NCBI GenBank assembly: GCA_035554115.1 | Contig: DATMIW010000070.1 | Coordinates: 18,742-82,741 of the forward strand | Origin: Pseudolysinimonas sp. | GTDB taxonomy: Bacteria > Actinomycetota > Actinomycetes > Actinomycetales > Microbacteriaceae | DNA: 64,000 nt | Direction: 5' to 3' | Shown: in pieces, positions 1 to 14,853 of the stretch | How the letters are laid out: every line of letters starts with the position of its first letter | How positions within the stretch are numbered: the first letter of the stretch is position 1 | Translations under genes and position numbers: made by a program | Notes under the pieces: generated by a model | The model's database searches: none | Told to the model about the DNA's origin: nothing | Seen by the model: only the letters and a program-made list of their open reading frames with translations

Positions 1-2772
1 TTCGTCAATGTGACAGTCGACCCTGATGCGCCTCTGGCTTATCCGATCGTGAGCGACACGGTTCTCGGCGTGAACGACGTTCTCGACCACGATTCCGTCG
101 ATGTTGCGGTTCTCGACAATGTCTTCTTTGCTGACGGCAATGTCGCCAATCTCGGGGTCGCGCTTGTGCAGGGCTACAGTTCGGGCGCCACGATTCTGGC
201 CAATAAGAGGATCCGCGTCACGATCGGTGACAAGAGCCAGATCATCCCGTTCTCGGTGTCGCATCCTGATGACGACTCGATTCGCTCATATGCCTTCATC
301 TGGGTGCCCGGATACGACGATGCTCTTCCGCAGCTCGATCGGACGGCTCCACCCCTGACGGTGAAGAGCGAAGAGACCCTGCGGATCGACCTCAACGACT
401 ATGTGGTTGCCCTGGGCGGGAATCAGGTCCGGCTCGCCGACACCTCGACGGTGCGCGCAACTCATGCAAACGGCGAAGACCTCGTGGTCGACAGCGACAC
501 CCTGTCGTTCACCTCGGCAGACCAGTACTTTGGCCCGGCATCGATAACCTTCGAGGTCACAGACGGCACCTTGGCCGACGATCCCGCGGGGAAACGGGCG
601 ATCCTGACACTGCCGATAACTGTTGAGCCGCGCACCAATCAACCACCCGCGTTCACCGGGGGAGTTGTGCCCTTCGAACCCGGCCAGCAGGTCGAGCTCG
701 ACCTCGTACGACTGACCAACTACCCCTATGACGATGTTTCCGAACTTGTCTATTCGGTGCTTTCGCCCCTGCCCGAAGGGTTCAGCTATGAGCTGAACGG
801 CCAGAGGCTGGTTCTTACGGCCAAAGAGTCGACGCCGAGCGGAACCAACACGTCGATCAGTATCGGAGTGCGCGACGATGTGAACGACGGACGCGCGGGA
901 CGGATCACGCTGCAGGTCGTTCCATCGACGCGCCCCATCATCAGACCCGTCGCAGATCGCGCGATTGCCGAACGCGGACAGACGACTGTTATCGATGTCC
1001 TTGCCAATGACGAGGCGAACAACCCGTTCCCGGGCCGCCCGCTCAGTGTGACCGACACGCGAGGTCTGGGCGAGCTGCCGGAGGGCGTGACTGTCACGCC
1101 GAGCGCTGATAGGTCGAAGTTGACGGTGACCGTCTCATCCAACGCCGCTCCCGTCGATGCCAATGTGCAGTACGAGGTCGCCGACGCGACCCTGGATGAA
1201 AGCCGTCGTGCATGGGGAAACGTGACGATCTCGGTGCAGGACGTGCCGGATCCGGTCAGTTCTGTGCACGTGTCGGAGTTTGGAGACCGTCTGCTCAAAC
1301 TGTCGTGGGCGGCCGGGCAGTTCAACAATTCGCCGATCACCGGGTATGAGGTCACGATGTCCGGAACAGATGGCGGTGTGATCTCGACGACGAGCTGCGA
1401 GACCACTGTCAACTGCGAGCTGAGAACTCCGGGCAACGGACCCGATAACGCGGTGCGCCTCTCGATGGTGGCGATTAACGCCATCGGGAAATCGTCACCC
1501 ACCTCACTGCCCGGCGCGATCTGGTCCGACATTATCCCGCCGCCCCCCACGAATCTGAGTGATCGCCCCCTCGACAACGGCCTGCGGATCACCTGGGCTA
1601 AGCCGGGTGGCGGCGCCGGAAGCCCGATCGAGCTGTACGTCATTACCGTCGGTGGCGTGACCCAGTCGATGAACGTGGACGCCAATGATCCGGTGGGAAC
1701 CGTCTATTCGCGCAATGTTCAGGCGCCCTCGATCGCGAATGGCAGCTCGGTCGGCTACAGCGTGAGTGCGCGCAATGGCGCGCCCAGCTCCCTCGCGACC
1801 TGGAACCAGGCCTCGGGGACGGGTGTTCCCGCCGGACCGCCACTCCAACTTGCGTCGCCATCGGCATCCGGGTCGCTCAGCGACGGGACGACGGCGCAAG
1901 TGTCGTGGGCAGGCGCGTTTGGAGCCAACGGCGCGACAATAGGCACCTATTACGTCTCGCTCTACACCGGATCCCAACCGTCATGTTCGGTATCGGGGGT
2001 CGACACGGGCAACCCCGTAGTGTCCCCGCCGGGCGGCAACACCCAGACACTGTCGGGTGGAACGACAGGCGCCTCATTCTCGGGTCTGACGCCCAATCAG
2101 CCGTACTCGATCACGGTCTTCGCCTACAACGGGCAGGGCTGCACCGCATCGCCCGAAGTGCAGGTCACCCCGCGAGCGGCGCCCGGCACCGTTTCTGCCA
2201 TCGATCACCCCGCGGGTCCGGTGGCGTCGAGCCCCAGCACATGGGATTTCCGCCTCGACGGATTCACGATCGGCTCCGGTTCCACCGACGCTGACCAATT
2301 CCGCTACCGCCTCATCGGCGGAACGACTGACCAGTCAGAGAGCGGCGTTGTCGACCCCGGATCCCTGTTGACGACCGATAACGGATCGCAATACGGCAAT
2401 GTCATCGGCGTGCAGCTGCGAGCGTGCAAGAGCTATCCCGAGGGCACTCTGTGTAGCGCATCATGGTCGCCGACCTTCCCCCTGGGGGTTCCTGTCAACA
2501 ATTCGGTGCCGGGCGGTCTCGCTGCTGTCGTCACCGACGACGGGGGCGGCTTGCTCAGCGCGAGCGGCTATTGGACCTGGGGCTCGATGCCCAGCGGACC
2601 CGGCTACAGCTCGGTGGGATTCTCCTGCGGCGGGGATGACGACTCCAGCACCCCTCAGCAGTGCGAGGTCTCGGGCGGTCTGCTGGGCGCCTCGTTCCCC
2701 AACCTGACTGTCACCATTACCGCCAACGGCACGACGTATTCGCGCGCATATGCGTGGAGCCAGTACTCATGA
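1..2772 (+). CDS. Large secreted/surface protein with cadherin/Ig-like and fibronectin type III repeats (5' end lies outside the window)
   Basis: Frame 1 is open from base 1 (ttc gtc aat precede the GTG at 10), so the gene is truncated by the window edge. Stop is TGA 2770-2772. It has a cadherin/VCBS-like module ('VADRAIAERGQTTVIDVLANDEANNPF...LSVTD'). At least three FN3-like modules follow ('LLKLSWAAGQFNNSPITGYEV', 'LRITWAKPGGGAGSPIELYVI', 'AQVSWAGAFGANGATIGTYYV'). There is no LPXTG at the C-terminus. Confidence 0.75.
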   Translation, partial: FVNVTVDPDAPLAYPIVSDTVLGVNDVLDHDSVDVAVLDNVFFADGNVANLGVALVQGYSSGATILANKRIRVTIGDKSQIIPFSVSHPDDDSIRSYAFIWVPGYDDALPQLDRTAPPLTVKSEETLRIDLNDYVVALGGNQVRLADTSTVRATHANGEDLVVDSDTLSFTSADQYFGPASITFEVTDGTLADDPAGKRAILTLPITVEPRTNQPPAFTGGVVPFEPGQQVELDLVRLTNYPYDDVSELVYSVLSPLPEGFSYELNGQRLVLTAKESTPSGTNTSISIGVRDDVNDGRAGRITLQVVPSTRPIIRPVADRAIAERGQTTVIDVLANDEANNPFPGRPLSVTDTRGLGELPEGVTVTPSADRSKLTVTVSSNAAPVDANVQYEVADATLDESRRAWGNVTISVQDVPDPVSSVHVSEFGDRLLKLSWAAGQFNNSPITGYEVTMSGTDGGVISTTSCETTVNCELRTPGNGPDNAVRLSMVAINAIGKSSPTSLPGAIWSDIIPPPPTNLSDRPLDNGLRITWAKPGGGAGSPIELYVITVGGVTQSMNVDANDPVGTVYSRNVQAPSIANGSSVGYSVSARNGAPSSLATWNQASGTGVPAGPPLQLASPSASGSLSDGTTAQVSWAGAFGANGATIGTYYVSLYTGSQPSCSVSGVDTGNPVVSPPGGNTQTLSGGTTGASFSGLTPNQPYSITVFAYNGQGCTASPEVQVTPRAAPGTVSAIDHPAGPVASSPSTWDFRLDGFTIGSGSTDADQFRYRLIGGTTDQSESGVVDPGSLLTTDNGSQYGNVIGVQLRACKSYPEGTLCSASWSPTFPLGVPVNNSVPGGLAAVVTDDGGGLLSASGYWTWGSMPSGPGYSSVGFSCGGDDDSSTPQQCEVSGGLLGASFPNLTVTITANGTTYSRAYAWSQYS

Positions 2773-2794
2773 CGTACCCGAGAGGACACACCCG

Positions 2795-3766
2795 ATGACT
2801 ATGACTCCGGAACAGGCGACAGCCTTCCAAGAGGCGTTCGGCAGGCTCGTTGCCGGCGTTGAGCAGGTGTTGCTTGGCAAGACTTTCGTCGTGCGCCTCG
2901 GATTCGTCGCGCTTTTTAGCGAAGGCCATCTGCTTCTCGAGGACTTTCCCGGCACGGGAAAGACGTCGTTCGCGCGCGCAATAGCCCAGAGCGTTGCGGG
3001 TACCCACAGTCGCGTGCAGTTCACTCCTGACCTTTTGCCGGGGGACATCACCGGTGTCAGCATTTACGACCAGCGCACAGGCAAGTTCGACTTTCATAAG
3101 GGGCCGATTTTCGCGAACATCGTGCTTGCCGACGAGATTAACCGGGCCAGCCCGAAGACCCAGGCCGCACTTCTCGAGGTCATGGAAGAGGGTCATGTGA
3201 CCGTTGACGGACACTCGCACAGTGTCGGTTTGCCGTTCATGGTGATTGCAACACAGAACCCCATCGAACAAGCCGGAACCTACCGACTGCCGGAAGCCCA
3301 GCTCGACAGGTTCCTGCTGAAAGCGTCAATCGGGTACCCGGATCACGCATCCACTCTCCGGATCCTCGAAGGAGCAGGAGTCAAGGCCCACGAGACGGCC
3401 ATCCCGCCAGTTGTCACAGCCGACGCCGTTCTCGAAATGGCGTCACTCGCGCGAACTGTGCATGTTGACGCAAGCGTTAACGACTACGTGTCGCGCCTCG
3501 TCGACGCGACTCGCTCGGCTACCGAGGTGCGATTGGGAGTCAGCGTGCGCGGTGCGCTCGCACTGGTGCGCAGCGCCAAAACTCTCGCGGCTGCCAGCGG
3601 TCGACACTATGTAGTTCCCGACGACATCAAGTCCTTGGCTGAGCCGGTGTTGGCGCACCGACTTGTGCTCGATCCGGAAGCCGAGTTCGACGGGGTTACG
3701 GCATCGAGCATTATCGGGCAGCTTCTTCTCGAGACGTCTCCGCCGAGTGATCGGCAAGCCGTGTGA
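2795..3766 (+). CDS. MoxR-family AAA+ ATPase (module 1)
   Basis: Walker A 'FPGTGKTS', Walker B region 'IVLADEINRASPKTQAALLEVMEE', and a MoxR-type lid 'VSVRGALALVRSAKTLAAASGRHYVVPDDIK'. The ORF opens at 2750, but ATG 2795 follows a GAGAGGA Shine-Dalgarno (2780-2786) and clears the upstream stop at 2772. Confidence 0.9.
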   Translation: MTMTPEQATAFQEAFGRLVAGVEQVLLGKTFVVRLGFVALFSEGHLLLEDFPGTGKTSFARAIAQSVAGTHSRVQFTPDLLPGDITGVSIYDQRTGKFDFHKGPIFANIVLADEINRASPKTQAALLEVMEEGHVTVDGHSHSVGLPFMVIATQNPIEQAGTYRLPEAQLDRFLLKASIGYPDHASTLRILEGAGVKAHETAIPPVVTADAVLEMASLARTVHVDASVNDYVSRLVDATRSATEVRLGVSVRGALALVRSAKTLAAASGRHYVVPDDIKSLAEPVLAHRLVLDPEAEFDGVTASSIIGQLLLETSPPSDRQAV

Positions 3767-5190
3767 GTACGCCACGCACCCATTCGCGGGTGCCACGCGG
3801 CGGGTCGACCGGATTACGGGGGTCGGCTCTCACCGACCGTGACACCCTCAGCCGCACGTCATCCGACGCCGCGGGACTCAGCAATATGCGTACGCGCCTG
3901 GTCGGGGCTCGCACCGGTGTGCTGGCGGAGTCGATCATTCTCGTCGTGCGCATCATCGCGCTCGTCAGCGGTGTCGTGGCTCGTGTGGCGCGTCGAGTTG
4001 CCGCAGTTATCACCCCACTCGGATGGGTCATGCTCGGCGTCGTTCCCGTCGCCTTCATCTGGGGATATCGGCTCGGCTGGATCGAATTGGTCGCGGTCGC
4101 GTGGGGCGCACTCGTCGTCGCCCTGGTCGCCGTGCTGTATCTCATCGGGCGCTCGCCACTGCGCGTGCAGTTGTCACTTCCGCATTCGCGGGTGACGGTC
4201 GGAGATCCGGCCTTCGCACATGTGAACGTCGTCAATCCGGCTTCTCGCCGGGTGTTCGGCGTGGCAATTGAGGTTCCGGTCGGCGATGGTCTCGCCGAGA
4301 TAGCGGTGCCGGGCTTGCGGGGTGGGGCCAGCCATGACCACGAGCTCACGATCCCCACGAGTCGACGCGGGGTCGTCGCCCTGGGTCCCGCTCGCACTGT
4401 GCGCGCCGACCCTGTCGGGATGGTCCGCCGCGAGGTGGTCTGGACCGACACCGTCGAATTGGTCGTGCATCCGCGCACCGTGGGGGTGCCGAGCACGAGC
4501 ACCGGGTTGATTCGCGACCTCGAGGGAGCCCCGACCCGTGATCTCACTGTCAGTGACGTCTCGTTCCATGCACTCCGCGAATATCAAACGGGGGATGAGC
4601 GCCGGTACATCCATTGGAAGTCGACGGCGAAGACCGGACGCTACATGGTCCGGCAGTTCGAAGAGACGCGACGCAGCCATCTCGTTGTTGCGCTGAGCCT
4701 CGCGACAAGCGATTACGCCTCAGAAGAGGAGTTCGAGCTTGCGGTCAGCGTCGCTGGCAGCCTTGGGGTGCGCGCGATCCGCGATGGCAGGACGGTGTCG
4801 GTCGTCGTCAGCACGATCACGCCCGAGTTCGCGAAACGCAAGGTTCTCACCGTTCGCCCGCTCGCGACTCACCTTCCTGCGCGTCTTCTTGATGACCTGG
4901 CCGTTGTCGATGTCGCCACCTCAGCCCTCAACATGCGCGACATTTCGCGCGTCGTCGCCGATGACGTAGCGGGTATCTCCGTCGCCTTCCTGGTCTGTGG
5001 ATCACGAACCACCCCGGTCGAGTTGCGGGCGGCCGCGCATGCGTTCCCCGTCGGGGTCGAGGTTGTCGCCATCGTCTGCGATCCGGATGCCGTGCCCGGC
5101 TTCCGACGCATCGCCGGTCTCAGCGTGCTCACCATCGGTTACCTGGAGGACCTCCGAGTCGCTCTCGCGCGGACGGCGGCAGTCGCATGA
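3763..5190 (+). CDS. DUF58 domain-containing membrane protein (vWA-like MoxR partner, module 1)
   Basis: DUF58 hallmark 'FHALREYQTGDERRYIHWKSTAKTGRYMVRQFEE', with hydrophobic N-terminal helices. The GTG start overlaps the MoxR stop (GTGTGA, 3761-3766). Confidence 0.85.
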   Translation: MSTPRTHSRVPRGGSTGLRGSALTDRDTLSRTSSDAAGLSNMRTRLVGARTGVLAESIILVVRIIALVSGVVARVARRVAAVITPLGWVMLGVVPVAFIWGYRLGWIELVAVAWGALVVALVAVLYLIGRSPLRVQLSLPHSRVTVGDPAFAHVNVVNPASRRVFGVAIEVPVGDGLAEIAVPGLRGGASHDHELTIPTSRRGVVALGPARTVRADPVGMVRREVVWTDTVELVVHPRTVGVPSTSTGLIRDLEGAPTRDLTVSDVSFHALREYQTGDERRYIHWKSTAKTGRYMVRQFEETRRSHLVVALSLATSDYASEEEFELAVSVAGSLGVRAIRDGRTVSVVVSTITPEFAKRKVLTVRPLATHLPARLLDDLAVVDVATSALNMRDISRVVADDVAGISVAFLVCGSRTTPVELRAAAHAFPVGVEVVAIVCDPDAVPGFRRIAGLSVLTIGYLEDLRVALARTAAVA

Positions 5191-7493
5191 CATCGCGGTT
5201 CGTCGTCGCCAACACCTTCCTGCTGTGGCTCGCCACGGCGGTGGCGGTCACAGCTCTGTGGCCGATCTACCAGGATCCGCGATTCACCATCCTGGTCGCG
5301 GTGACCGTCGTGCTCGGCTCTGCCATAGCCATCCTGGGAGCGGTCTTCCGGTGGTCGTCGGCGGTTGTTCTCCTCGTCGGCTTTGCCGTGTTTCTTGTGG
5401 CCGGTGTTCCGCTCGCCGTGCCGGATGAGGCCATCGGAGGAGTGCTCCCCAGTTTTGCCGGCATTGTCGAACTTCTGAAAAGCGTGGCGCTCGGCTGGAA
5501 GCAGCTGCTCACGATCGTGTTGCCCGTCGGCGACTACCAGGCTCTACTCGTTCCCGCCTTCGTGCTCATTCTCGTCAGCACGGTCGTCGCGCTTTCGATA
5601 GCCCTGCGATCGCGCCGCGGCGAGCTCGGGGTGATCCCCCCGATCCTGCTCTTCCTCGCGGGAATCGCCTTCGGCCCCGATGCCGTTCCGTGGCCGGTGC
5701 CGTGGGCTCTGGCGCTGTTCTCGATCGTGCTGCTGTGGCTGAGCTGGCGTCGGTGGCGACGTCGACACATCCAAGTGCGGCGCCTGGACCGCGCCACGGC
5801 ATCGCAGGGCGGCCGGACGTTCGAGGGCGCCGGAGCCGAAGCTGCCGGAGCCCGAACTGTCGTCGGAGCAGGCGTCATCTTGGCCATCGCCGCGGCTGCA
5901 TCCATTGCCGTGGTCACCCTGCCCAGCCTTCAGCCGACGGCGGAGCGCACGGTGCTGCGCACTGCCATGGAACAGCCGTTCGATCCGCGGGACTACCCCA
6001 GCCCGCTCTCCGGTTTTCGGCGGTATCTGAATGACGATCGCGTGGACGATTCCCTGTTCACAGTGACGGGCCTGCCTGTCGGTGGTCGGATCCGCATTGC
6101 GACTCTCGATAGCTACGACGGGGTCGTGTATGCGGTCGGAAGTCCTGCGGTCGACAGCGCTTCGGGAAGTTTCGTGCGCATTCCCGCCACGGTCGATCAG
6201 TCAAAGATTTCCGGGACTCAGCTCGATCTCACGGTGACAGTGGATGACTATCGCGGAGTCTGGCTTCCCACAGTCGGAAAGTTCGAATCGGTCGACTTTT
6301 CGGGTTCCGATGCGAGGCGATTGCGGGATGCTTTTTACTACAACGACACGAGCGGCACGGCTGCGGTGATCGGCGGTGTCTCACGAGGTGACAGTTACCA
6401 GCTGAGGGCAGTCAACCCGAGCCAGCCGACGGGGCGTGCGTTGCTCACTGTTACTCCGGGCTCTGCTGATCTGCCGCGGCTGGGGGAGTTGCCGGACGAA
6501 CTGTCGGCGGCGCTCGACGGCTATGTGGGCGGGCTCGTGGATCCGGGAGCCCGTCTCTCGGCTGCGATCAACGGTCTGCGACAAGAGGGGTATATCAGTC
6601 ATGGTCTGGGCGATGAGGAGCCCAGCCGTTCGGGTCACGCCGCTGATCGCGTCACCGAACTCTTCAGCGCTCCCCGCATGATCGGAGACGCCGAGCAATA
6701 TGCCGTCGCAGCGGCTCTTATGGCTCGGCAGCTGGGGTTCCCGGCTCGCGTCGTATTCGGCTTTGCACCGGACTCCGAGAGCACACGTGTCGATGTGCGC
6801 GGATCAGATGTGAGTGCCTGGATCGAGGTCGATACCGCTGAGTTCGGCTGGGTGACGATCGATCCGGTGCCCGAAGAACGACCGATTCCGGATGAGGTTC
6901 CCGAGGACCCGAAGCAGGTGGCACGCCCCCAATCGATCGTCCCCCCGCCCCCGGACAGGCCGGACATCAAGCAGAACCAGTCGACGCCCGACACCGAACA
7001 GGACGAGCCGCAGGCGATTGATCCGGTGATCGCCGCCATCTTGGCCATCTTGCGCGTGGCAGGTGGTGTCCTCCTCATCGTCGCGATCCTTCTAGCCCCA
7101 TTTGCTCTGGTGATCGCTGCCAAGGTTCGGCGACGGCGTCTTCGGCGTAACGCGCCGACCGCCGTGCAGCGAATTCGCGGCGGGTGGGACGAGTTCGCCG
7201 ATGCCGTGGTCGATCACGGATATGCGCCACCGAAATCGGCAACTCGTTCAGAAGTGGCCGCGGTGGTCGGCAGTCTGCCCTCGCGCGTGCTCGCAGCTGT
7301 GGCTGACCGTGCTGTCTTCGCGCCCGGGGAACCGCGGGCGTCTGATGCGGACCACGTTTGGGACGCCGTTATCGAATTGCGCGCGGCTCTCGCTGCGGGC
7401 CTCACCCGCCGCCAGCGACTTCGTGCGCTCGTCTCGCTTCGCTCGCTTGGTGGCTATAGTGTTCGAAATCTGCTCAAGGGGGCGCGACGATGA
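5187..7493 (+). CDS. Transglutaminase-like (TgpA-type) polytopic membrane protein; core catalytic residues substituted
   Basis: About six N-terminal TM helices and a transglutaminase-core-like segment 'GDAEQYAVAAALMARQLGFPARVVFGF...DVSAWIEVD...GWVTIDPV'. A Pro-rich linker, a further TM helix and a DUF4129-like tail follow. ATGA overlap with the DUF58 stop (5187-5190). Confidence 0.85.
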   Translation: MTSRFVVANTFLLWLATAVAVTALWPIYQDPRFTILVAVTVVLGSAIAILGAVFRWSSAVVLLVGFAVFLVAGVPLAVPDEAIGGVLPSFAGIVELLKSVALGWKQLLTIVLPVGDYQALLVPAFVLILVSTVVALSIALRSRRGELGVIPPILLFLAGIAFGPDAVPWPVPWALALFSIVLLWLSWRRWRRRHIQVRRLDRATASQGGRTFEGAGAEAAGARTVVGAGVILAIAAAASIAVVTLPSLQPTAERTVLRTAMEQPFDPRDYPSPLSGFRRYLNDDRVDDSLFTVTGLPVGGRIRIATLDSYDGVVYAVGSPAVDSASGSFVRIPATVDQSKISGTQLDLTVTVDDYRGVWLPTVGKFESVDFSGSDARRLRDAFYYNDTSGTAAVIGGVSRGDSYQLRAVNPSQPTGRALLTVTPGSADLPRLGELPDELSAALDGYVGGLVDPGARLSAAINGLRQEGYISHGLGDEEPSRSGHAADRVTELFSAPRMIGDAEQYAVAAALMARQLGFPARVVFGFAPDSESTRVDVRGSDVSAWIEVDTAEFGWVTIDPVPEERPIPDEVPEDPKQVARPQSIVPPPPDRPDIKQNQSTPDTEQDEPQAIDPVIAAILAILRVAGGVLLIVAILLAPFALVIAAKVRRRRLRRNAPTAVQRIRGGWDEFADAVVDHGYAPPKSATRSEVAAVVGSLPSRVLAAVADRAVFAPGEPRASDADHVWDAVIELRAALAAGLTRRQRLRALVSLRSLGGYSVRNLLKGARR

Positions 7494-8314
7494 CATGTCA
7501 GTACTGTGCGAGTGAGGTGCCCGAGGGGGCACTCTTCTGTGGCGAATGCGGTCGCTCGCTTGATGCTGCCGCAGTAGCTCCCGCGGTTGTGGAGGATGCG
7601 GCGGCACGGTCCGCCCTGCCGTCCATGCGCACACCCGTTCCGGCGTCCGTACCGAAGCCGGCCGTCTCGGCCTCCGTACCGCGTCAGGCTGTCCCGGAGC
7701 ACATGCCGATCCAAGCCGTCCCGGCGTCCGAGGCCTGGCCTTTCGATTCTGTTGTGAGTCCCGAATCAGTTGGCCCCGAACCCGTTAGTCCCGAATCCGT
7801 CTTGCCCGCAGCATCAGACCCAGCCGAGGAGTACCCCGTGGAGAACCCGACAGCACCACAATCCGAGCCTGAAGGCACTGTCGCCTCGGCCGGCGCACGT
7901 GTCACACCCGACCCATTCCCATGGGGAACGTCGACGCCTGATGAAGGCGATGTCGAGGCGACTCGCATCGTCTCGCAGCACGGCGGCGGAGAACGCTTCG
8001 TCTTGCAGTTCAGCACGGGTGAGAGCGTCACGGTCTCTGGGGCCGGATTGATTGGGCGCAACCCCGCGGCTCAGCCGGGCGAGTACGTCGATCAGCTCGT
8101 ATCGATTTTCGACGTCGGCAAGTCGGTGTCGAAGACGCACCTCGAATTCGGCCAAGACCAAGGCCGGTTCTGGGTCAGTGACAGGTATTCGACGAACGGA
8201 TCGATTGTGCGTCAGCCTGAGGCTGAGCCGCGCCGCTGCGAGCCAGGACGTCGTTATTTTGTCGTGCGGGGAACTCGCATTGACGTGGGGGAGCAGTTCT
8301 TCGTCGTGAGCTGA
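7490..8314 (+). CDS. Zinc-ribbon plus FHA domain protein
   Basis: N-terminal 'CQYCASEVPEGALFCGECG' (CxxC...CxxC), a Pro/Ser/Val-rich linker, and a C-terminal FHA signature 'GLIGRNP...SVSKTHLEF...WVSDRYSTNGSIV'. ATGA overlap with the upstream stop (7490-7493). Confidence 0.8.
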   Translation: MTCQYCASEVPEGALFCGECGRSLDAAAVAPAVVEDAAARSALPSMRTPVPASVPKPAVSASVPRQAVPEHMPIQAVPASEAWPFDSVVSPESVGPEPVSPESVLPAASDPAEEYPVENPTAPQSEPEGTVASAGARVTPDPFPWGTSTPDEGDVEATRIVSQHGGGERFVLQFSTGESVTVSGAGLIGRNPAAQPGEYVDQLVSIFDVGKSVSKTHLEFGQDQGRFWVSDRYSTNGSIVRQPEAEPRRCEPGRRYFVVRGTRIDVGEQFFVVS

Positions 8315-8404
8315 CCGCTCCTTCCCCGATGGCACAGGGCGTCGTCATCCCGATAGCTCGGATGCCGTGGGGTTGAGGGCCCGCCAGCTTGGTGGACTAG
8401 GGGG

Positions 8405-11263
8405 ATGCTTCCGCTCCCCGCCCCTGAACGTATAGCCCTCCCCGTACTCGCGAATTCCGCCGGCCGCACGGGATTTCCCCTCGTCGCAACCTTGGCACCT
8501 GTGGGAATGTCACTTGCTCTCTGGGCGATTACGCAATCGCCGGCGAGCCTGCTGTTCGCCCTTTTGGGTCCGCTGGTGGCAATCGGGGGTCTCATCGACG
8601 GGCGGGTATCGCGTCGCAAAAATGTGCGGCGAGAGCGTCAGAGATTCGCCCAGTCCCTCGAACGCATTCGGGAACGCATAGTCGAGGCGCACCAGCGCGA
8701 AATCCGACGACAGGAAAGCCTGGCACCGCACTGTCCACGCGACGAATCCGACAATGAGCTTCCGGCCAGCAAGCTATGGACAGAAGCGCCGGATGCCCCT
8801 GTCCCGGTGCTGCTCGGGAGGGCGGACCTCCCGAGTCGTCTCGAACTCACGGGCGACGATCCCGACGAGGCACCGGCTCCCCTTCGGAGTGCCATTGCCG
8901 ATCTTCGCGCGACTGCCGCCATCGTGAAGCAGGCGCCTGTTGTGGCCGACGCCCGCGACGGAATCGGCGTCATTGGTCCGTCGACGCTCGCAGCTGCCAC
9001 GGCGAGAGCGGTGGCCGTTCAAATCGCGGCGACCTTGTCGCCCGCCGGGACCACGGTTCGCGCTCCAGCCTCCGAAATGTGGGTTTCAGCACTTCCGCAC
9101 GCAACAGCTTTCGCAGACCACATGGCTTTTCGTTTTGTGACGGATGGACAGACGATGACTGTGGCGTGGGCGAAGGAACGTCGCGAGCTGTCACGTGACT
9201 GTGCGCTAGTGATTGATGTGGGCGGCGAGCCACGCCACGAGGAACATATTGGGCACGAATTCTCTCCTGTAGCCGTTTCTCGTTCGAGAGCCCACCGCAA
9301 CGCACAGCGGCTGGCGAAAGTCGCGGACGCGCACAATATTGTCCCGGCATCATCGCGGCTGCCCCATCGAGTCGATCTGGGTGATCTTCTCGATGAGGCG
9401 CGTATCTCAGAGGTGGCGCCACCGACGGGATCTCTTGCGGTGCCACTGGGGCGGGACGCGATCGGAAAGGTGATGGTCGACCTCGTGACCGACGGCCCGC
9501 ATGCCATCGTGGCGGGCACCACAGGGTCCGGTAAGAGCGAACTCCTGGTTTCGTGGGTTCTGGCGCTCGCGGCGACGCGCACACCCGACGAGGTCGTGTT
9601 CGTGCTGATCGACTTCAAAGGGGGTGCCGCTTTCGCTCCTCTCGCGGGCGTTCCCCATGTGCTCGCAACCTTGAGCGATCTAGACGCTCGGCTCACGCGG
9701 CGGGCAATTGACAGTCTGCGTGCCGAACTGCTGCACCGCGAACGCACCCTTGCGGCGCATCACGCGCGGTCGATCGCAGATCTTCCGGGCGGTGTCCTGC
9801 CGCGCCTTGTCATAGTTGTTGACGAATTCGCTGCAGTAGTCGGCGCGAATCCCGAATTGCATGATGTATTCGCCGATCTAGCGGCTCGTGGCCGTTCGCT
9901 CGGTATGCATCTGATCCTCTGCACGCAACGACCGTCGGGGGTCATTCGTGATGCCGTTCTCGCCAATGTGACCCTGCGGATCTCGCTCCGGGTCATGGAT
10001 CGAGCCGACAGCGTGGCGATGCTGGGCAGCGATATCGCGTTCCGCCTTCCAGTCGAGCCGAGCGGACGTGCTGTGGCAGTCGGCACAACAGCGAGCTCAG
10101 GCGAAAGAGGTGCCCCTGCCGATCCTCACGAGCTCCAGCTCGCAATCGCGCATTTCGCCGACGCAAGCCGAGCCCGTGAGGGCATTCATGGGGCGACTCG
10201 GCGCCCGTGGCACGACCCACTCCCCGCTCGCTTGGAAGTATCAGAGCTACCCGAGGTCGAATCCGGAATACCGTTTGGGCTGCTCGACCTCCCAGGGGAA
10301 CAGCGACAGCCGGTCGCCGTGTATGAACCGCGCGACCATGGATCTCTGCTCATCACAGGCGCCGGAGGTGCCGGCAAGACGCAGGCCGTCACCACCCTGG
10401 GCTGCGCGGCGCGCGAACGGGAGTATGACGTGATCGTGGTTCCCTCGCGCCCCGCTGATGCGTGGTCGTGCGTTGCCGCAGAGCTGGCTCGAGCTGAGCC
10501 GGCGCGCCGGGTGATGATATTCGACGACCTCGACCTGCTGAGCGACAGATTCAACTCGGACTACCGGCACGAGTTCGTCGACATGGTGATGCGCCTCGTA
10601 CGGGAGGCCTCGTCGCGTCAGCTCGGCATGGTCATGTCGGCTCATCGCATGACGGGCGCCCTATCTTCGCTCGCACAGATGATGGGGTCCCGACTGCTGC
10701 TCCGGCAGGTCACTCGCGACGAGCATGTTCTCGCTGGCGGAAGCAGTACACACTATGACGCGGATGCGCCGCCGGGTTCCGGCACATGGCGCGGTGACGT
10801 GATCCAGGTCGCAATTAGCGACTCAGAAGCCGCCGCAATGCCGCGCACCGACGCTTCACGGGTTCCCGAAGTACGTGTCGCTGAACATGAGGTTCTCGCC
10901 ATCGTCACCCCGCGTCCACGCGGCATCGTAGCTCAGCTCAACACGCAGAGCGTGCGTGTCGTTGATGTCGGCGAGCGTTCTTCGCTGAGTCCGGGTGCGC
11001 CGACCGAGCTGCGTATCTCCACGGGTGCGCAGCCCACTGTGCTCATAGGCGACCCGGAAGCATGGCAGGCGGACTGGGCCCTCCTCACGCAGGTGAGGCG
11101 CGAGGTCCCGATCGTGATGATCGGATGTTCGCCGGCCGATCATCGCGCGATATTGCGTGATCGTGAGCTCCCTCCGCCGCTCGAGGCGTCAGCCGACGAA
11201 TGCTGGCTCGCCGACGGAGGCAGGACGATTCGAGCGCTCTGGGCCGACAGGATGGCGCCATGA
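8405..11263 (+). CDS. FtsK/SpoIIIE-family (EccC/EssC-like) multi-P-loop membrane ATPase
   Basis: Two N-terminal TM helices. P-loop 1 is 'VAGTTGSGKSELL' with Walker B 'RLVIVVDEFAAVV'. P-loop 2 is 'ITGAGGAGKTQAV' with 'VMIFDDLDLL'. Flanking segments look like degenerate P-loop folds. ATG 8405 follows a GGGGG run. Confidence 0.85.
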   Translation: MLPLPAPERIALPVLANSAGRTGFPLVATLAPVGMSLALWAITQSPASLLFALLGPLVAIGGLIDGRVSRRKNVRRERQRFAQSLERIRERIVEAHQREIRRQESLAPHCPRDESDNELPASKLWTEAPDAPVPVLLGRADLPSRLELTGDDPDEAPAPLRSAIADLRATAAIVKQAPVVADARDGIGVIGPSTLAAATARAVAVQIAATLSPAGTTVRAPASEMWVSALPHATAFADHMAFRFVTDGQTMTVAWAKERRELSRDCALVIDVGGEPRHEEHIGHEFSPVAVSRSRAHRNAQRLAKVADAHNIVPASSRLPHRVDLGDLLDEARISEVAPPTGSLAVPLGRDAIGKVMVDLVTDGPHAIVAGTTGSGKSELLVSWVLALAATRTPDEVVFVLIDFKGGAAFAPLAGVPHVLATLSDLDARLTRRAIDSLRAELLHRERTLAAHHARSIADLPGGVLPRLVIVVDEFAAVVGANPELHDVFADLAARGRSLGMHLILCTQRPSGVIRDAVLANVTLRISLRVMDRADSVAMLGSDIAFRLPVEPSGRAVAVGTTASSGERGAPADPHELQLAIAHFADASRAREGIHGATRRPWHDPLPARLEVSELPEVESGIPFGLLDLPGEQRQPVAVYEPRDHGSLLITGAGGAGKTQAVTTLGCAAREREYDVIVVPSRPADAWSCVAAELARAEPARRVMIFDDLDLLSDRFNSDYRHEFVDMVMRLVREASSRQLGMVMSAHRMTGALSSLAQMMGSRLLLRQVTRDEHVLAGGSSTHYDADAPPGSGTWRGDVIQVAISDSEAAAMPRTDASRVPEVRVAEHEVLAIVTPRPRGIVAQLNTQSVRVVDVGERSSLSPGAPTELRISTGAQPTVLIGDPEAWQADWALLTQVRREVPIVMIGCSPADHRAILRDRELPPPLEASADECWLADGGRTIRALWADRMAP

Positions 11264-11423
11264 ATCCGCCCCAATACAGGGGACGATTTCACAAAAAACC
11301 CTGATCCGGCTTGGTCGGCGCGCGTGGTGCCACTCTCGCAGGTGGCATTTGATATGCCAGTATCTAGCACGACGCGCCGTTGCGTCACCGCCGCCTTCCG
11401 AATGACCCGAAGGAGCATCACCC

Positions 11424-12629
11424 ATGGCTCGCTCGTTGCCCGCCGATCCCGTGATCAGATCCCTCGTCACAGAGGCACGCCGAGCACACCTCAGCCGCCG
11501 CACTGTTCTCGCCGGCGTCGGCGTGGGCGCTTCCGCCCTCGCCCTAGCCGCATGCGCACCCGGAGCATCGGGAAAGCCGACCCCGCCGCCAGACAATTCC
11601 GCCCGCGACAAGAAGGTCGTGTGGGCAGCACGCTCCGGTCGAGTCGACACAACAGACACCGGATCCCACCCCACTCTCCAGAAGTTCACAGACGAGAGCG
11701 GCGTGGCCGTCAACTACGACGACACGATCGGGAACAGTTACAACTTCTTCTCCAAGTTCAAGACCCAGCTTTCTCAGGGCCAAGATATTGGCATCGATGT
11801 GGCCTCTCTCTCCGACTGGCAGACTGCTCGCCTGATCGACCTCGGATACATCCAAGAGCTCGACCATGCCGAACTTCCCAATTTCACCAACCTCGACCCG
11901 GATCTCCTTACTGTCGGCTATGACGCAAAGCGCCAGTACACCCTGCCGTGGCAGGGGGGCATGACGGGCATCTGCTGGAACAAAGCTGCTCTCCCCGACG
12001 GATTGCGTAAAGTCTCCGAGCTGTGGGGCCCTACGCTCGCCGGGCACGTGGGTATTGTTCCCGAGATGCGGGACACGATCGGCCTCATCATGCTCGACCA
12101 GGGCATCGACATCTCGTCCGACTGGCGAGAGTTGTATTTCGACGACGCCAGCGCATTCCTCGAGCGCCAGCTGGGTGGCCAGATCCGGTTCTCCAAGAGC
12201 AGTTCATATCTGCAAGACCTCGTCAACGGCGACACAGTTGCATCTATCTGCCGTTCGGGGGACATCACCGTTCTCAATGCCACCCACGGGGACCAGTGGG
12301 AGTTTGCGATCCCGGATTCCGGCGGAGTTCTCTGGTACGACAACTTTGTGGTGCCGATCGGTTCACGGCGCAAGGCCAACGCTGAAAAGCTCATGAACTA
12401 CTACTACGAGCCCGAAGTGGCCGCTGAGGTGGCGGCCTGGACCGGCTATATGCCCCCGGTCGAGGGCGCCCAGGCGGCGATGGCTGATATCGACCCGAGC
12501 CTGGTCGACAACCAGCAACTGTTCCCGAACGCGGCAACACAGGCGTCCGTTAAGCAGTTCCGACCTCTGAACGCCGCGGAGTCGCAGACATTCGAGGCGG
12601 CGTTCCAAAGCCTGCTGCTCGGCGCCTAG
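11424..12629 (+). CDS. Polyamine (spermidine/putrescine, PotD/PotF-like) ABC transporter substrate-binding lipoprotein
   Basis: Tat-like 'SRRTVLAGVGVGASALALAAC' signal with a lipobox Cys. The family-1 SBP body resembles PotD/PotF ('YTLPWQGGMTGICWNK'). GAAGGAG Shine-Dalgarno at 11410-11416. Confidence 0.78.
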   Translation: MARSLPADPVIRSLVTEARRAHLSRRTVLAGVGVGASALALAACAPGASGKPTPPPDNSARDKKVVWAARSGRVDTTDTGSHPTLQKFTDESGVAVNYDDTIGNSYNFFSKFKTQLSQGQDIGIDVASLSDWQTARLIDLGYIQELDHAELPNFTNLDPDLLTVGYDAKRQYTLPWQGGMTGICWNKAALPDGLRKVSELWGPTLAGHVGIVPEMRDTIGLIMLDQGIDISSDWRELYFDDASAFLERQLGGQIRFSKSSSYLQDLVNGDTVASICRSGDITVLNATHGDQWEFAIPDSGGVLWYDNFVVPIGSRRKANAEKLMNYYYEPEVAAEVAAWTGYMPPVEGAQAAMADIDPSLVDNQQLFPNAATQASVKQFRPLNAAESQTFEAAFQSLLLGA

Positions 12630-12679
12630 CTTCGCCGAGCCTCGTGCCGGCGAGCGGTTAGCACCGAGTCGCACGCCGC

Positions 12680-13783
12680 TTAGAGCTGGGTCGTATCCGG
12701 TGCGCTCGTGCTGTCGAGTTTCGTATACAGCTCGGCGTAGTCGCTGTCGAGCGCGACAAGTTCGGCGACCTTTCCGTTATAGATTTCGACGTCGCTGTTC
12801 AGAGACGTCAGTTCTGTCTGCAGGGCCGCTTGACGATCGACCAGCACTTGGCGCGCAGTCCGGAACTCGGTCTCGCTCGTGAAGCCTCCACTGTCGGCGC
12901 GGGCGTTGAACGCGCTGATATCGACGTCGAGTTGGGCCGAGGCCGCGGTGAATGCTGATTGTCGTGCGGTGAGTGCGGCATCCATGGCGTCGAGATCGGA
13001 TGCCAGAGCGGCAAGCTTGGCCTCGAACGCGTCGAGGACGGCTACCGACCGCTGGAACAAGCTGAGGACTTTGGCGCGACTATCGAAGTAGTGGGCGTAA
13101 TGCGCTTCGAGTTTCTTCGGCAGTTTCGAATACTCGGTCCCCAGCCGCGAATGCCATTCGTCGGCGAAGTCCGCCTCGGCATAGCCGTCTTGCAGCGTCG
13201 CGAAGGTCTTGTCGTCCGAGGGCAGCGTTGCTACATAGGAAGCGACAAGTTTGTCCACCTCGTGCCGTTCGGCCTCCGACATGCGTTGGTACGCCGCGTG
13301 GAGCATTTCGTGCGCTGCGGTGACCTCCATGGTGCCGGTCAGTCGGGTATCCGTCACCCGGTAGATAAAGATGTCGGTGCCATCGAAACAGCCCAGAGTG
13401 CCTTCTGTCTCAACGCTGCAGTCTGCATTGAACGCTGTCGCGTTCTCGATTTCGGGGGTGGAAGCAAGGAAAATGCGTCGACCGGTCTCGTTCATGCCCG
13501 TAGCTGCGGCCAACGACACGACGGCGGCACTCGAAGGCTCGGTGAGAACCGTGTATTCGTCGGCGAAGAACTGTTGGCGTGCCGAATCCCAGGGCGCAAT
13601 GACAATGAGGGCAGCGATGACCACGACGCCCACGGCAACGCCGACGATAGGGAGTGTCCTGCGGCGAGTTGATGTGCCCCGATGGTGGCCGCCGAGCGCA
13701 TGCCGCGGGGGAGTGTCAGGCAGCGGCTCATGTCGCAACGCGGGGTCGGCTTCGAGGCGATCCTCGGTGCCGGCGGTCGTCAT
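12680..13783 (-). CDS. Membrane-anchored hypothetical protein with HExxH zincin-like motif and C-terminal coiled coil
   Basis: One TM helix ('LPIVGVAVGVVVIAALIVIAPW'), an extracytoplasmic 'TAAHEMLHAAY' motif, and a long Ala/Leu/Asp/Glu-rich heptad-like C-terminus. No confident family assignment. Confidence 0.6.
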   Translation of the reverse strand: MTTAGTEDRLEADPALRHEPLPDTPPRHALGGHHRGTSTRRRTLPIVGVAVGVVVIAALIVIAPWDSARQQFFADEYTVLTEPSSAAVVSLAAATGMNETGRRIFLASTPEIENATAFNADCSVETEGTLGCFDGTDIFIYRVTDTRLTGTMEVTAAHEMLHAAYQRMSEAERHEVDKLVASYVATLPSDDKTFATLQDGYAEADFADEWHSRLGTEYSKLPKKLEAHYAHYFDSRAKVLSLFQRSVAVLDAFEAKLAALASDLDAMDAALTARQSAFTAASAQLDVDISAFNARADSGGFTSETEFRTARQVLVDRQAALQTELTSLNSDVEIYNGKVAELVALDSDYAELYTKLDSTSAPDTTQL

Positions 13784-13887
13784 GGCATCAGCGTATCCAG
13801 CGTGTGCCGGTATGACGCACGCATGCCACGCGCATGCCGCACGCAGTATTCACCTGACCCGCAGGAATTCTGGGCCAGGATGGGGGG

Positions 13888-14853
13888 ATGCTTCGCACCC
13901 GCGCCTTCGTGGCCGCCCTGACCATTTCCGTTCTCGGCATCAGCCTGGCCGCCTGCTCATCAGGCGCGCCAGATCCGTCGTCCTCGGCGTCATCGGCCGC
14001 CACGGCCTGTTCGCCCGCGGGCGAGGCGTCGAAGTCGATAGCTGTGACAGGCAAGGTGGGGACGGCTCCGACCGTCACGATTCCGTTCCCCGTGTCGACA
14101 GACATCACCGAGAGGACAGTCACGGTCAAGGGTTCCGGGACCGCTGCCAAGGCAGGCGACAAGGTGCGGACGCAGTTCACGATCTATAACGCGACGACGG
14201 GTGAAGTGCTGACGTCTACGGGCTACGGCGAGGGGACAGCCCTTACCCTGAGCCTCGACGAGCAGACCCTTGCCGGCTTTACCAAGGCTTTGCTCTGCGC
14301 GAAGCCCGGTTCCCGCATCACGGCGGTCATTCCGCCCGCCGACGCATTCGGAGCCCAGGGCTATTCAGGCGACGAGTTTTCGATCAGCGGTAAAGACTCG
14401 GTTGTTTTCGTAGCCGATGTGCTGAAGCCCCTGCCGCCGTTGACCCCCAAGGCGTGGAAAGACAACGTCCCGACAGTGACGTACACAGGCGATGTTCCGA
14501 CGGTCACCCTTCCGCAGACACCGGCGCCCACAGATCTCCTTCGCAAGGTCCTCACGAAAGGGACCGGCGCCACAGTTGGCGCGTCCGACACCGTGACTCT
14601 CGATTACCACGGCATCAGTTGGACCACGGGTGAAGTGTTCGACGAAAGCTTCACCAAGAAGCCCATCAGTCTCACGGCGAGCAGCTTCGTACCCGGCTTC
14701 TCGGCGGCAATCATCGGGCAAAAGGTCGGGACCACTTTGCTCGTGTCGATCCCGCCCGTCGACGGCTACGGCGTCGACCCCGCGGCGCATGAGCTCGGTG
14801 GTCAGACTCTCGTGTTCCTGGTGAAGATCGAGAAGACGGCCAAGGCCGGGTGA
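13888..14853 (+). CDS. FKBP-type peptidyl-prolyl cis-trans isomerase lipoprotein (two FKBP domains)
   Basis: Lipobox 'SLAAC'. FKBP signatures '[20 protein letters not shown]' and '[29 protein letters not shown]', plus an upstream degenerate copy. Confidence 0.85.

Follow-up and report, generated by a model that had tools for sequence, protein, structure and literature searches.

An eight-gene cluster in Microbacteriaceae that probably represents the Esr pathway, with a reduced EccC-like ATPase and a predicted pseudo-transglutaminase

The first part of a 64,000-nucleotide stretch of Pseudolysinimonas sp. DNA (GenBank assembly GCA_035554115.1, contig DATMIW010000070.1, positions 18,742 to 82,741; G000:C70:18742-82741 in the labelling used here, where G, C and L mark genomes, contigs and loci), hereafter called the window, carries genes for a giant surface protein, a MoxR ATPase, a DUF58 protein, a TgpA-like protein, a Zn-ribbon/FHA protein and a short EccC-like ATPase, which form a cluster of eight with a PP2C phosphatase and a Ser/Thr kinase encoded just upstream. 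This cluster is probably a version, from the Microbacteriaceae, of the Esr (epibiont sensing and response) pathway, which was defined in Schaalia odontolytica (Wang et al., bioRxiv 2026-09-09, PMC13622651), and the same system as the PFNA operon of Bifidobacterium (Nezametdinova, Danilenko et al.; PMC8430577), with the giant most likely acting as the sensor and the ATPase as the output. An earlier, sequence-only reading of the window had regarded the MoxR-DUF58-transglutaminase triad as functionally unassigned, a description that has to be given up, since the cluster matches these published systems. Its members are as follows.

G000:C70:13230-14018, same strand as the window genes, upstream of the window: PP2C phosphatase
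G000:C70:14142-15581, same strand, upstream of the window: Hanks-type Ser/Thr kinase
1-2772, plus strand: giant of the EsrA/FN3 type, C-terminal 923 codons (Pfam fn3, Big_9, Cadherin_5)
2795-3766, plus strand: MoxR-family AAA+ ATPase (Pfam AAA_3, AAA_lid_2, bpMoxR)
3763-5190, plus strand: DUF58 (vWA-like) membrane-anchored adaptor (PF01882)
5187-7493, plus strand: EsrD/TgpA-like polytopic membrane protein (TgpA_N and Transglut_core)
7490-8314, plus strand: EsrG-type Zn-ribbon/FHA output protein (Pfam Zn_Ribbon_1 and FHA)
8405-11263, plus strand: short EccC/EssC-like ATPase of 952 amino acids (aa) (EssC/EccCa models, AlphaFold2 fold)

In S. odontolytica, the giant EsrA, which combines a Sec signal with an N-terminal beta-propeller and 14 immunoglobulin (Ig)-like domains, senses Saccharibacteria, and its deletion abolishes signalling; deletion of esrD releases EsrA into the supernatant, EsrD being the protein that retains EsrA on the cell; and the FHA protein EsrG, the target of the Esr kinase, becomes phosphorylated on Thr within its disordered linker in an EsrA-dependent manner, which drives a response in which EsrG controls either transcription or the Esx ATPase EccC (PMC13622651). 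Esr is described as a pathway that Patescibacteria epibionts activate and that protects the host. The same preprint reports that esx genes adjoin 40% of 3502 Esr loci, that EsrG is often fused to EccC, that Zn-finger variants of EsrG are prominent, and that Esr2 of S. odontolytica controls the secretion of some Esx substrates post-translationally (PMC13622651). The window cluster shares with Esr the giant with its N-terminal beta-propeller and Ig-like repeats, the MoxR and vWA-like proteins, the transglutaminase-like EsrD, the Ser/Thr kinase, the PP2C, the FHA output protein with its disordered linker and the adjoining EccC-type ATPase; moreover, both the Zn-finger EsrG variants and the EsrG-EccC fusions reported there were recovered independently here. 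It differs in that its gene order opens with the phosphatase and the kinase, its vWA-like component belongs to DUF58, and its ATPase has only 952 aa, two P-loops and no third ATPase domain (D3). Substrate genes of the esx type do not adjoin the cluster, EccB, EccD and EssB went undetected in the genome, and the window EsrD is devoid of the catalytic Cys and His.

The PFNA operon has the order pkb2-fn3-aaa-atp-duf58-tgm, optionally with prpC-hyp-fha; it is co-transcribed in Bifidobacterium longum GT15, where Pkb2 phosphorylates the MoxR protein (PMC8430577), and it was claimed to occur in Bifidobacterium only (PMC10688814). Its core order of kinase, FN3 giant, MoxR, DUF58 and TGM is that of the window, and all five core proteins are homologous by tblastn to those of Bifidobacterium gallicum (L059), two further loci of the same family (L058, L060) being matched as well. 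In contrast to PFNA, where the phosphatase gene lies downstream, PP2C is encoded upstream here, an EccC-like gene is added, and the host is no gut bifidobacterium. The homologues compared below contradict two published claims, namely that PFNA is confined to Bifidobacterium and that TGM is a cysteine protease. The descriptions of Esr and PFNA do not cite one another, and the Esr preprint mentions neither PFNA nor Bifidobacterium; the synteny, fusion and distribution results presented here reproduce the bioinformatic claims of the preprint and link both literatures.

The open reading frame (ORF) of the giant enters the window from beyond its 5' end and closes with the stop codon at 2770-2772; its start lies at C70:15583, 1 nucleotide past the kinase stop and 3158 nucleotides upstream of the window, so that the whole protein has 1976 aa. 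MoxR begins with an ATG at 2795, preceded by a GAGAGGA ribosome-binding site, and the overlaps that follow are GTGA at 3763-3766 (MoxR/DUF58), ATGA at 5187-5190 (DUF58/TgpA-like) and ATGA at 7490-7493 (TgpA-like/FHA), with 90 nucleotides between the FHA stop and the ATPase start. The six ORFs and tight junctions claimed in the sequence-only reading were borne out when the coordinates were checked in the sequence, and annotation of all six proteins with the hidden Markov models (HMMs) of Pfam and NCBIfam agreed with every identity that it had named. A promoter and terminator scan of positions 1-14000 returned fewer sites than did shuffled sequence and is uninformative in this high-GC genome.

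How firmly, then, do these genes belong together? The named relatives are Pseudolysinimonas, Lysinimonas and Schumannella, which places the genome in the Microbacteriaceae. Of 121 genomes of this family, 70 encode a full-length homologue of the short ATPase, and in at least 45 of those 70 its gene follows that of a same-strand TgpA homologue at a distance of 1-2 kb. When the eight proteins were compared by tblastn with 42 fetched loci of the family, the complete eight-gene order was found in many genera (L018-L036, L054-L057). The arrangement is far beyond chance, and the order recurs in dozens of genera. About ten genomes of the family contain the first seven genes and no ATPase; in two (G002, G036) the ATPase sits elsewhere, with PP2C directly upstream of it and gone from the main cluster, and three further genomes (L063-L065) have a PP2C-ATPase pair apart from any TgpA homologue. 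This co-movement of PP2C with the relocated ATPase (L049, L052, L063-L065) argues that the ATPase or a partner of it is a client of the phospho-switch.

Beyond the Microbacteriaceae, the block of giant, MoxR, DUF58 and TgpA genes is present in almost every sampled family of the order, the order of the kinase, PP2C and FHA genes being variable there, and clusters were found in B. gallicum, Demequina (L073), Actinomyces (L074), Dermatophilaceae and other orders. The sampled loci of Bifidobacterium and several other Actinomycetales have the giant and the triad and no EccC-like gene nearby. The gene directly after TgpA encodes, in L076 as well as in the Dermatophilaceae Terrabacter, Janibacter, Intrasporangium and others, an FHA-EccC fusion of ~1480 aa that consists of an N-terminal FHA domain, a transmembrane (TM) segment and three FtsK-type ATPase domains; one to three WXG100 genes come next. 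The triad precedes the fusion in 50 of 54 long fusion-type loci. The fusion is 33% identical to the window ATPase in the TM/stalk region and 41% identical in the first ATPase domain (D1). In the light of these fusions, the Zn-ribbon/FHA protein and the two-P-loop ATPase of the window are a split, reduced version of an EssC-like architecture. The synteny of the FHA/FtsK-like pair and the FN3 gene with the MoxR triad, on whose failure the sequence-only reading would have been abandoned, holds in the tabulated neighbourhoods, and its view of the six genes as one functional unit is upheld by that synteny together with the FHA-ATPase fusions of other families.

The fusion of L076 has a domain of ~90 aa in front of FHA (residues 1-90), which may be ubiquitin-like, as in YukD/EsaB. 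A second, paralogous cluster accompanies the short-ATPase type in Agreia, Herbiconiux and Cnuibacter (L150-L157), in G034, G051, G075 and G103, and in others; its order is MoxR, DUF58, TgpA, RDD-FHA, PP2C, a second FHA protein, kinase, a three-P-loop FHA-EccC fusion and WXG100 genes.

In the giant, an N-terminal signal/anchor is followed by a beta-propeller, and about ten Ig-like repeats of the cadherin/Big_9 kind and then FN3 repeats lead on to a C-terminal domain of ~200 aa. Its basic N-terminus runs into a 19-residue hydrophobic (TM) segment (residues 14-32), it contains no LPXTG motif, and Pfam finds seven Big_9 stretches in addition to cadherin-like and fn3 domains. An AlphaFold2 model of residues 21-420, made from an alignment that included Bifidobacterium and other relatives, forms a beta-propeller (predicted local distance difference test, pLDDT, 83.9) with the archaeal S-layer YVTN propeller and BamB as its best fold matches (1L0Q among them). 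This N-terminal domain is also present in three other families of the class, there without exception in ORFs of ~2000-2100 aa, and it shares 23-29% identity over 400 aa with those of the Bifidobacterium FN3 proteins. Across families and orders most EsrA-type ORFs have a length of ~1800-2150 aa (the giant of this cluster has 1976 aa, that of B. longum 1994 aa), and this near-constancy suggests that the reach of the filament is under selection. In Janibacter sp. GS2 (L153, 2969-5188), the EsrA-type giant is cut down to ~470 aa and a 266-aa ORF, and the remaining cluster and the FHA-EccC fusion are retained.

The TgpA-like protein has 6-7 N-terminal TM helices, a ~380-aa domain, one further TM helix and, in the cytoplasm, a tail that matches DUF4129 (Pfam) weakly and below threshold. 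The ~380-aa domain has the transglutaminase fold and is predicted by the positive-inside rule to face outside. When the protein is aligned with the structure of P. aeruginosa TgpA (6G49), the position of the catalytic Cys is taken by Ala502 (codon 6690-6692) and that of the His by Ser543 (codon 6813-6815), Asp559 of the triad being retained (codon 6861-6863). All 52 cluster-linked homologues that were aligned, the named ones of which include Microbacteriaceae, Dermatophilaceae, Demequina, Actinomyces and Bifidobacterium, read GD[ADQGES]EQ[YF] in place of GxCxx[YF], and the same Cys is lost in 114 of 120 Actinomyces- and Microbacteriaceae-type homologues, a survey that reached Actinomyces, the experimentally studied EsrD sequence of Schaalia lying outside the sample. 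The TgpA/EsrD-type protein, having lost its nucleophile, is a pseudoenzyme. The missing Cys argues against the readings of TGM and EsrD as a cysteine protease and as a covalent linker, respectively, and, because the nucleophile is absent, EsrD may hold the sensor filament non-covalently.

The kinase, PP2C, MoxR and the D1 domain of the ATPase have intact catalytic motifs. The kinase (Pkinase, 143 bits; VAVK, HRDIKPSN and DFG motifs) spans the membrane with a single TM helix and exposes a beta-rich domain of ~90 aa to the outside, and the phosphatase matches PP2C_2 and contains the DGMGGH motif. MoxR scores 204.8 bits with AAA_3, 86 bits with AAA_lid_2 and 36 bits with bpMoxR (cut-off 27), with Walker A GTGKT at residue 53 and Walker B LADEINR at residue 111. 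The DUF58 protein (PF01882, 48.7 bits) combines a cytoplasmic N-tail rich in Ser and Thr with 2-3 TM helices, its hydrophobic segments lying in residues 47-128. In the EsrG-type protein, a ~140-aa linker rich in Pro and Ala joins a Zn ribbon (CxxC...CxxC) to an FHA domain that has the canonical GR, SxxH and NG motifs. In an alignment of 31 homologues, the Zn ribbon is conserved, as is a motif, [ED]D[VIL]E[AE]TR[IL]V, that lies ~10 residues before FHA and reads EATRIV in the window. Its Thr, T158, is the best candidate phospho-site of EsrG, picked because Val/Ile at the +3 position suits FHA binding.

The ATPase is made up of a TM hairpin (residues 24-64), a long helix that forms the stalk, an alpha/beta domain of DUF-like type, D1, a second ATPase domain (D2) and a small C-terminal domain. 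It has only two Walker A motifs, GTTGSGKS at 9515-9538 in D1, with Walker B VVDEFA at 9815-9832, and GAGGAGKT at 10358-10381 in D2, together with IFDDLD; the third P-loop domain, D3, which in EccC binds the substrate signal, is absent. Across 45 homologues the D1 motifs show no variation, but the P-loop Lys of D2 varies. Pfam reports an FtsK_SpoIIIE match, and the NCBIfam models for EssC (TIGR03928) and EccCa (TIGR03924) give 249 and 195 bits against cut-offs of 778 and 509. The AlphaFold2 model (pLDDT 87.5) finds its best fold match in T. curvata EccC (4NH0, three-domain cytoplasmic part, E 3.6e-31, 891 columns), with EssC second, and FtsK matches it across one domain only. A role as DNA translocase of the FtsK/TraB type was considered and rejected, the EssC/EccC HMMs scoring 4-fold above the FtsK model and the multi-domain fold being that of EccC.

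With EccC and EssC, its best structural and HMM matches, the protein shares the TM hairpin, the stalk, the DUF-like domain, the tandem FtsK-type ATPase domains and an FHA partner, which is a separate gene product here, is fused in Dermatophilaceae and has its counterpart in the N-terminal FHA domains of Firmicute EssC. It differs from them in having two P-loop domains rather than three, scores under the cut-offs, and neither canonical membrane partners nor an adjacent WXG100 gene. The ATPase is the sole EccC-like match of its genome at E <= 1e-20, and EccB, EccD and EssB were undetected there (PF05108, TIGR03920, PF10140), as in 16-18 of 20 tested genomes, including all eight with an FHA-EccC fusion and WXG100, although the Pfam and NCBIfam models could miss divergent pore proteins. 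It is no part of a canonical type VII secretion system, be it T7SSa or T7SSb. The only WXG100 gene of the genome (53.5 bits) lies on another contig (G000:C6:3815-6868, L239), just past a HAMP/HisKA histidine kinase gene, and two ORFs without a Pfam match, of 480 aa and 234 aa, come after it; the short ATPase could have this WXG100 protein and the products of the neighbouring ORFs as substrates or partners. A phyletic test of WXG100 against the ATPase does not discriminate, WXG100 being present in 117 of 121 genomes of the family, four without an ATPase hit among them. Only two of the 20 tested genomes have EccB and EccD, which are adjacent and lie beside WXG100 genes (G088:C19:15854-25937 and G055:C1:760050-763589); in G088 a further TgpA paralogue adjoins EccB/EccD, so canonical T7SSa loci can also adjoin a TgpA-like gene.

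The system probably operates as follows. The giant would project its beta-propeller from the surface on an Ig-like stalk and do the sensing, held on the envelope by the polytopic, pseudo-transglutaminase TgpA-like protein of the EsrD type. The membrane-anchored DUF58 protein and the MoxR AAA+ ATPase would couple the surface event to the cytoplasm, where the single-pass Ser/Thr kinase would be switched on, to be reset by PP2C. The kinase would then phosphorylate a Thr in the disordered linker of EsrG, T158 of EATRIV being the best candidate, and binding of the phospho-Thr by FHA would change EsrG, which would act on the neighbouring EccC-like ATPase, possibly on DNA via its Zn ribbon, or on both. 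Three points are inferred only: what stimulates the pathway in this organism, T158 as the site, and the role of the short ATPase. A similar logic is known from P. aeruginosa, where the PpkA-PppA-Fha1 Thr phosphorylation pathway controls H1 type VI secretion post-translationally: a membrane Ser/Thr kinase with an outward domain, a PP2C and an FHA protein gate a secretion ATPase. The analogy is one of logic only, the secretion machinery and the sensor of that system being unrelated to those of the Esr cluster.

The trio of MoxR, vWA and beta-propeller proteins also recalls, in a broad sense, the MoxR-vWA-beta-propeller ternary conflict systems (Kaur et al. 2020, PMC7159879). Those systems, however, have toxin-type effectors and a patchy, island-like distribution, whereas the window cluster is devoid of an effector toxin domain and is core and syntenic, on which ground an anti-phage or conflict island was rejected; a PADLOC scan gave only generic kinase and HerA/FtsK-domain matches and no defence-system assignment.

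Several points weigh against identifying the cluster with Esr. The organism is a metagenome-assembled genome, and the experiments were carried out on homologues elsewhere. The Esr work itself is a single preprint on an oral Schaalia, whereas the host of the window is a Microbacteriaceae species of soil/freshwater type. The covalent-linker model that the preprint proposes for EsrD does not fit the missing catalytic Cys of the sampled homologues. The ATPase is without D3 and scores far under the EccC/EssC family cut-offs, and the failure to detect EccB, EccD and EssB makes the usual Esx output doubtful for this genome.

Could the cluster instead be a machine for exporting, assembling or remodelling the giant, as the sequence-only reading had it, with MoxR and DUF58 as chaperone and adaptor and the FtsK-like protein as the translocase of the giant? 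The tight coupling of the genes is compatible with such a machine, a mycobacterial MoxR chaperone is reportedly needed for Tat export of its neighbour RipA (cited in PMC12067865), and loss of EsrD frees EsrA into the supernatant in Schaalia (PMC13622651). The giant nevertheless bears a Sec-type N-terminal signal/anchor of its own; giant, MoxR, DUF58 and TgpA occur in many loci without an EccC-like gene in or near the cluster (L038-L047, L050, L058-L060, L067-L075); WXG100 substrates follow the fused ATPase; and EsrA deletion abolishes signalling in Schaalia, so that EsrA is not a secretion end-point (PMC13622651). Together these points leave a pump for giant export unsupported and make the machine very unlikely: what stands is one part of the assembly proposal, in that EsrD retains EsrA on the Schaalia cell. 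A role as bare neighbours, in which the ATPase and FHA genes merely accompany the MoxR triad and have no functional link to it, can draw on the downstream PotD-like gene, which is also often conserved without an obvious link. It is contradicted by the FHA-ATPase fusions directly after TgpA in other families, by the start/stop overlaps, by the co-migration of PP2C with the ATPase and by the genetic link reported in Schaalia (PMC13622651), and is most improbable.

An unlikely possibility is a minimal type VII-like secretion apparatus, in which the ATPase would use the TgpA-like protein, DUF58 and the kinase as membrane partners in place of EccB/EccD or EssB; just as unlikely is the corollary that it exports the lone WXG100 protein, or another effector, under phospho-Thr control. 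The genome has this single EccC-like gene (E <= 1e-20) and one WXG100 gene elsewhere, EccB, EccD and EssB went undetected both here and in the eight fusion-type genomes with FHA-EccC and WXG100 beside the triad, and the modelled fold is EccC-like, with TM hairpin, stalk and DUF domain. Set against this are the absence of D3, the unconserved P-loop Lys of D2, the weak phyletic link implied by the four family genomes with WXG100 and no EccC-like hit, and the divergent pore proteins that Pfam and NCBIfam models may miss. If it were true, a kinase-gated minimal secretion apparatus would have gone unrecognised hitherto, and Esr would be part of the machine and not only its regulator. Finally, the PFNA literature has proposed a sensor of host immunity whose FN3 protein binds cytokines such as TNF-alpha, and a B. 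longum FN3 fragment reportedly binds TNF-alpha in vitro (PMC8430577, PMC10688814); homologous clusters, however, are common in Microbacteriaceae of soil and water, in Dermatophilaceae, in Demequina and in other orders. With such a distribution a host-cytokine role is neither ancestral nor general and is implausible for this organism, for which the proposal is hardly credible.

What is the significance of finding Esr in such a genome? The system is already known, as Esr and as PFNA, and the locus adds to it a reduced ATPase and a clear pseudo-transglutaminase. If the identification is right, the 'cytokine-sensing' PFNA operon and the Esr pathway are one ancient system that is common in free-living Actinobacteria of soil and water, and this shared identity and distribution undercut the host-immune reading of PFNA. 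The Esr model, in turn, gains EsrD-type proteins without a nucleophile, a candidate Thr near the FHA domain of Zn-ribbon EsrG, and many genomes in which Esr is paired with an EccC-like ATPase without the known type VII pore proteins.

Two observations concern the surroundings of the cluster and its records. In many Microbacteriaceae a gene for a PotD/PotF-like solute-binding lipoprotein (11424-12629 in the window) lies 3' of the cluster, and it does so with or without the EccC-like gene (L003, L004, L018, L020, L023, L025, L027, L028, L032, L041, L042); it looks like a conserved neighbour, and nothing observed supports its membership in the system. A contig of a metagenome-assembled genome labelled 'Acidobacteria bacterium' (L003, JABBOD010000014.1) contains the cluster in the same order with 46-87% protein identity and is probably a mis-binned Microbacteriaceae contig.

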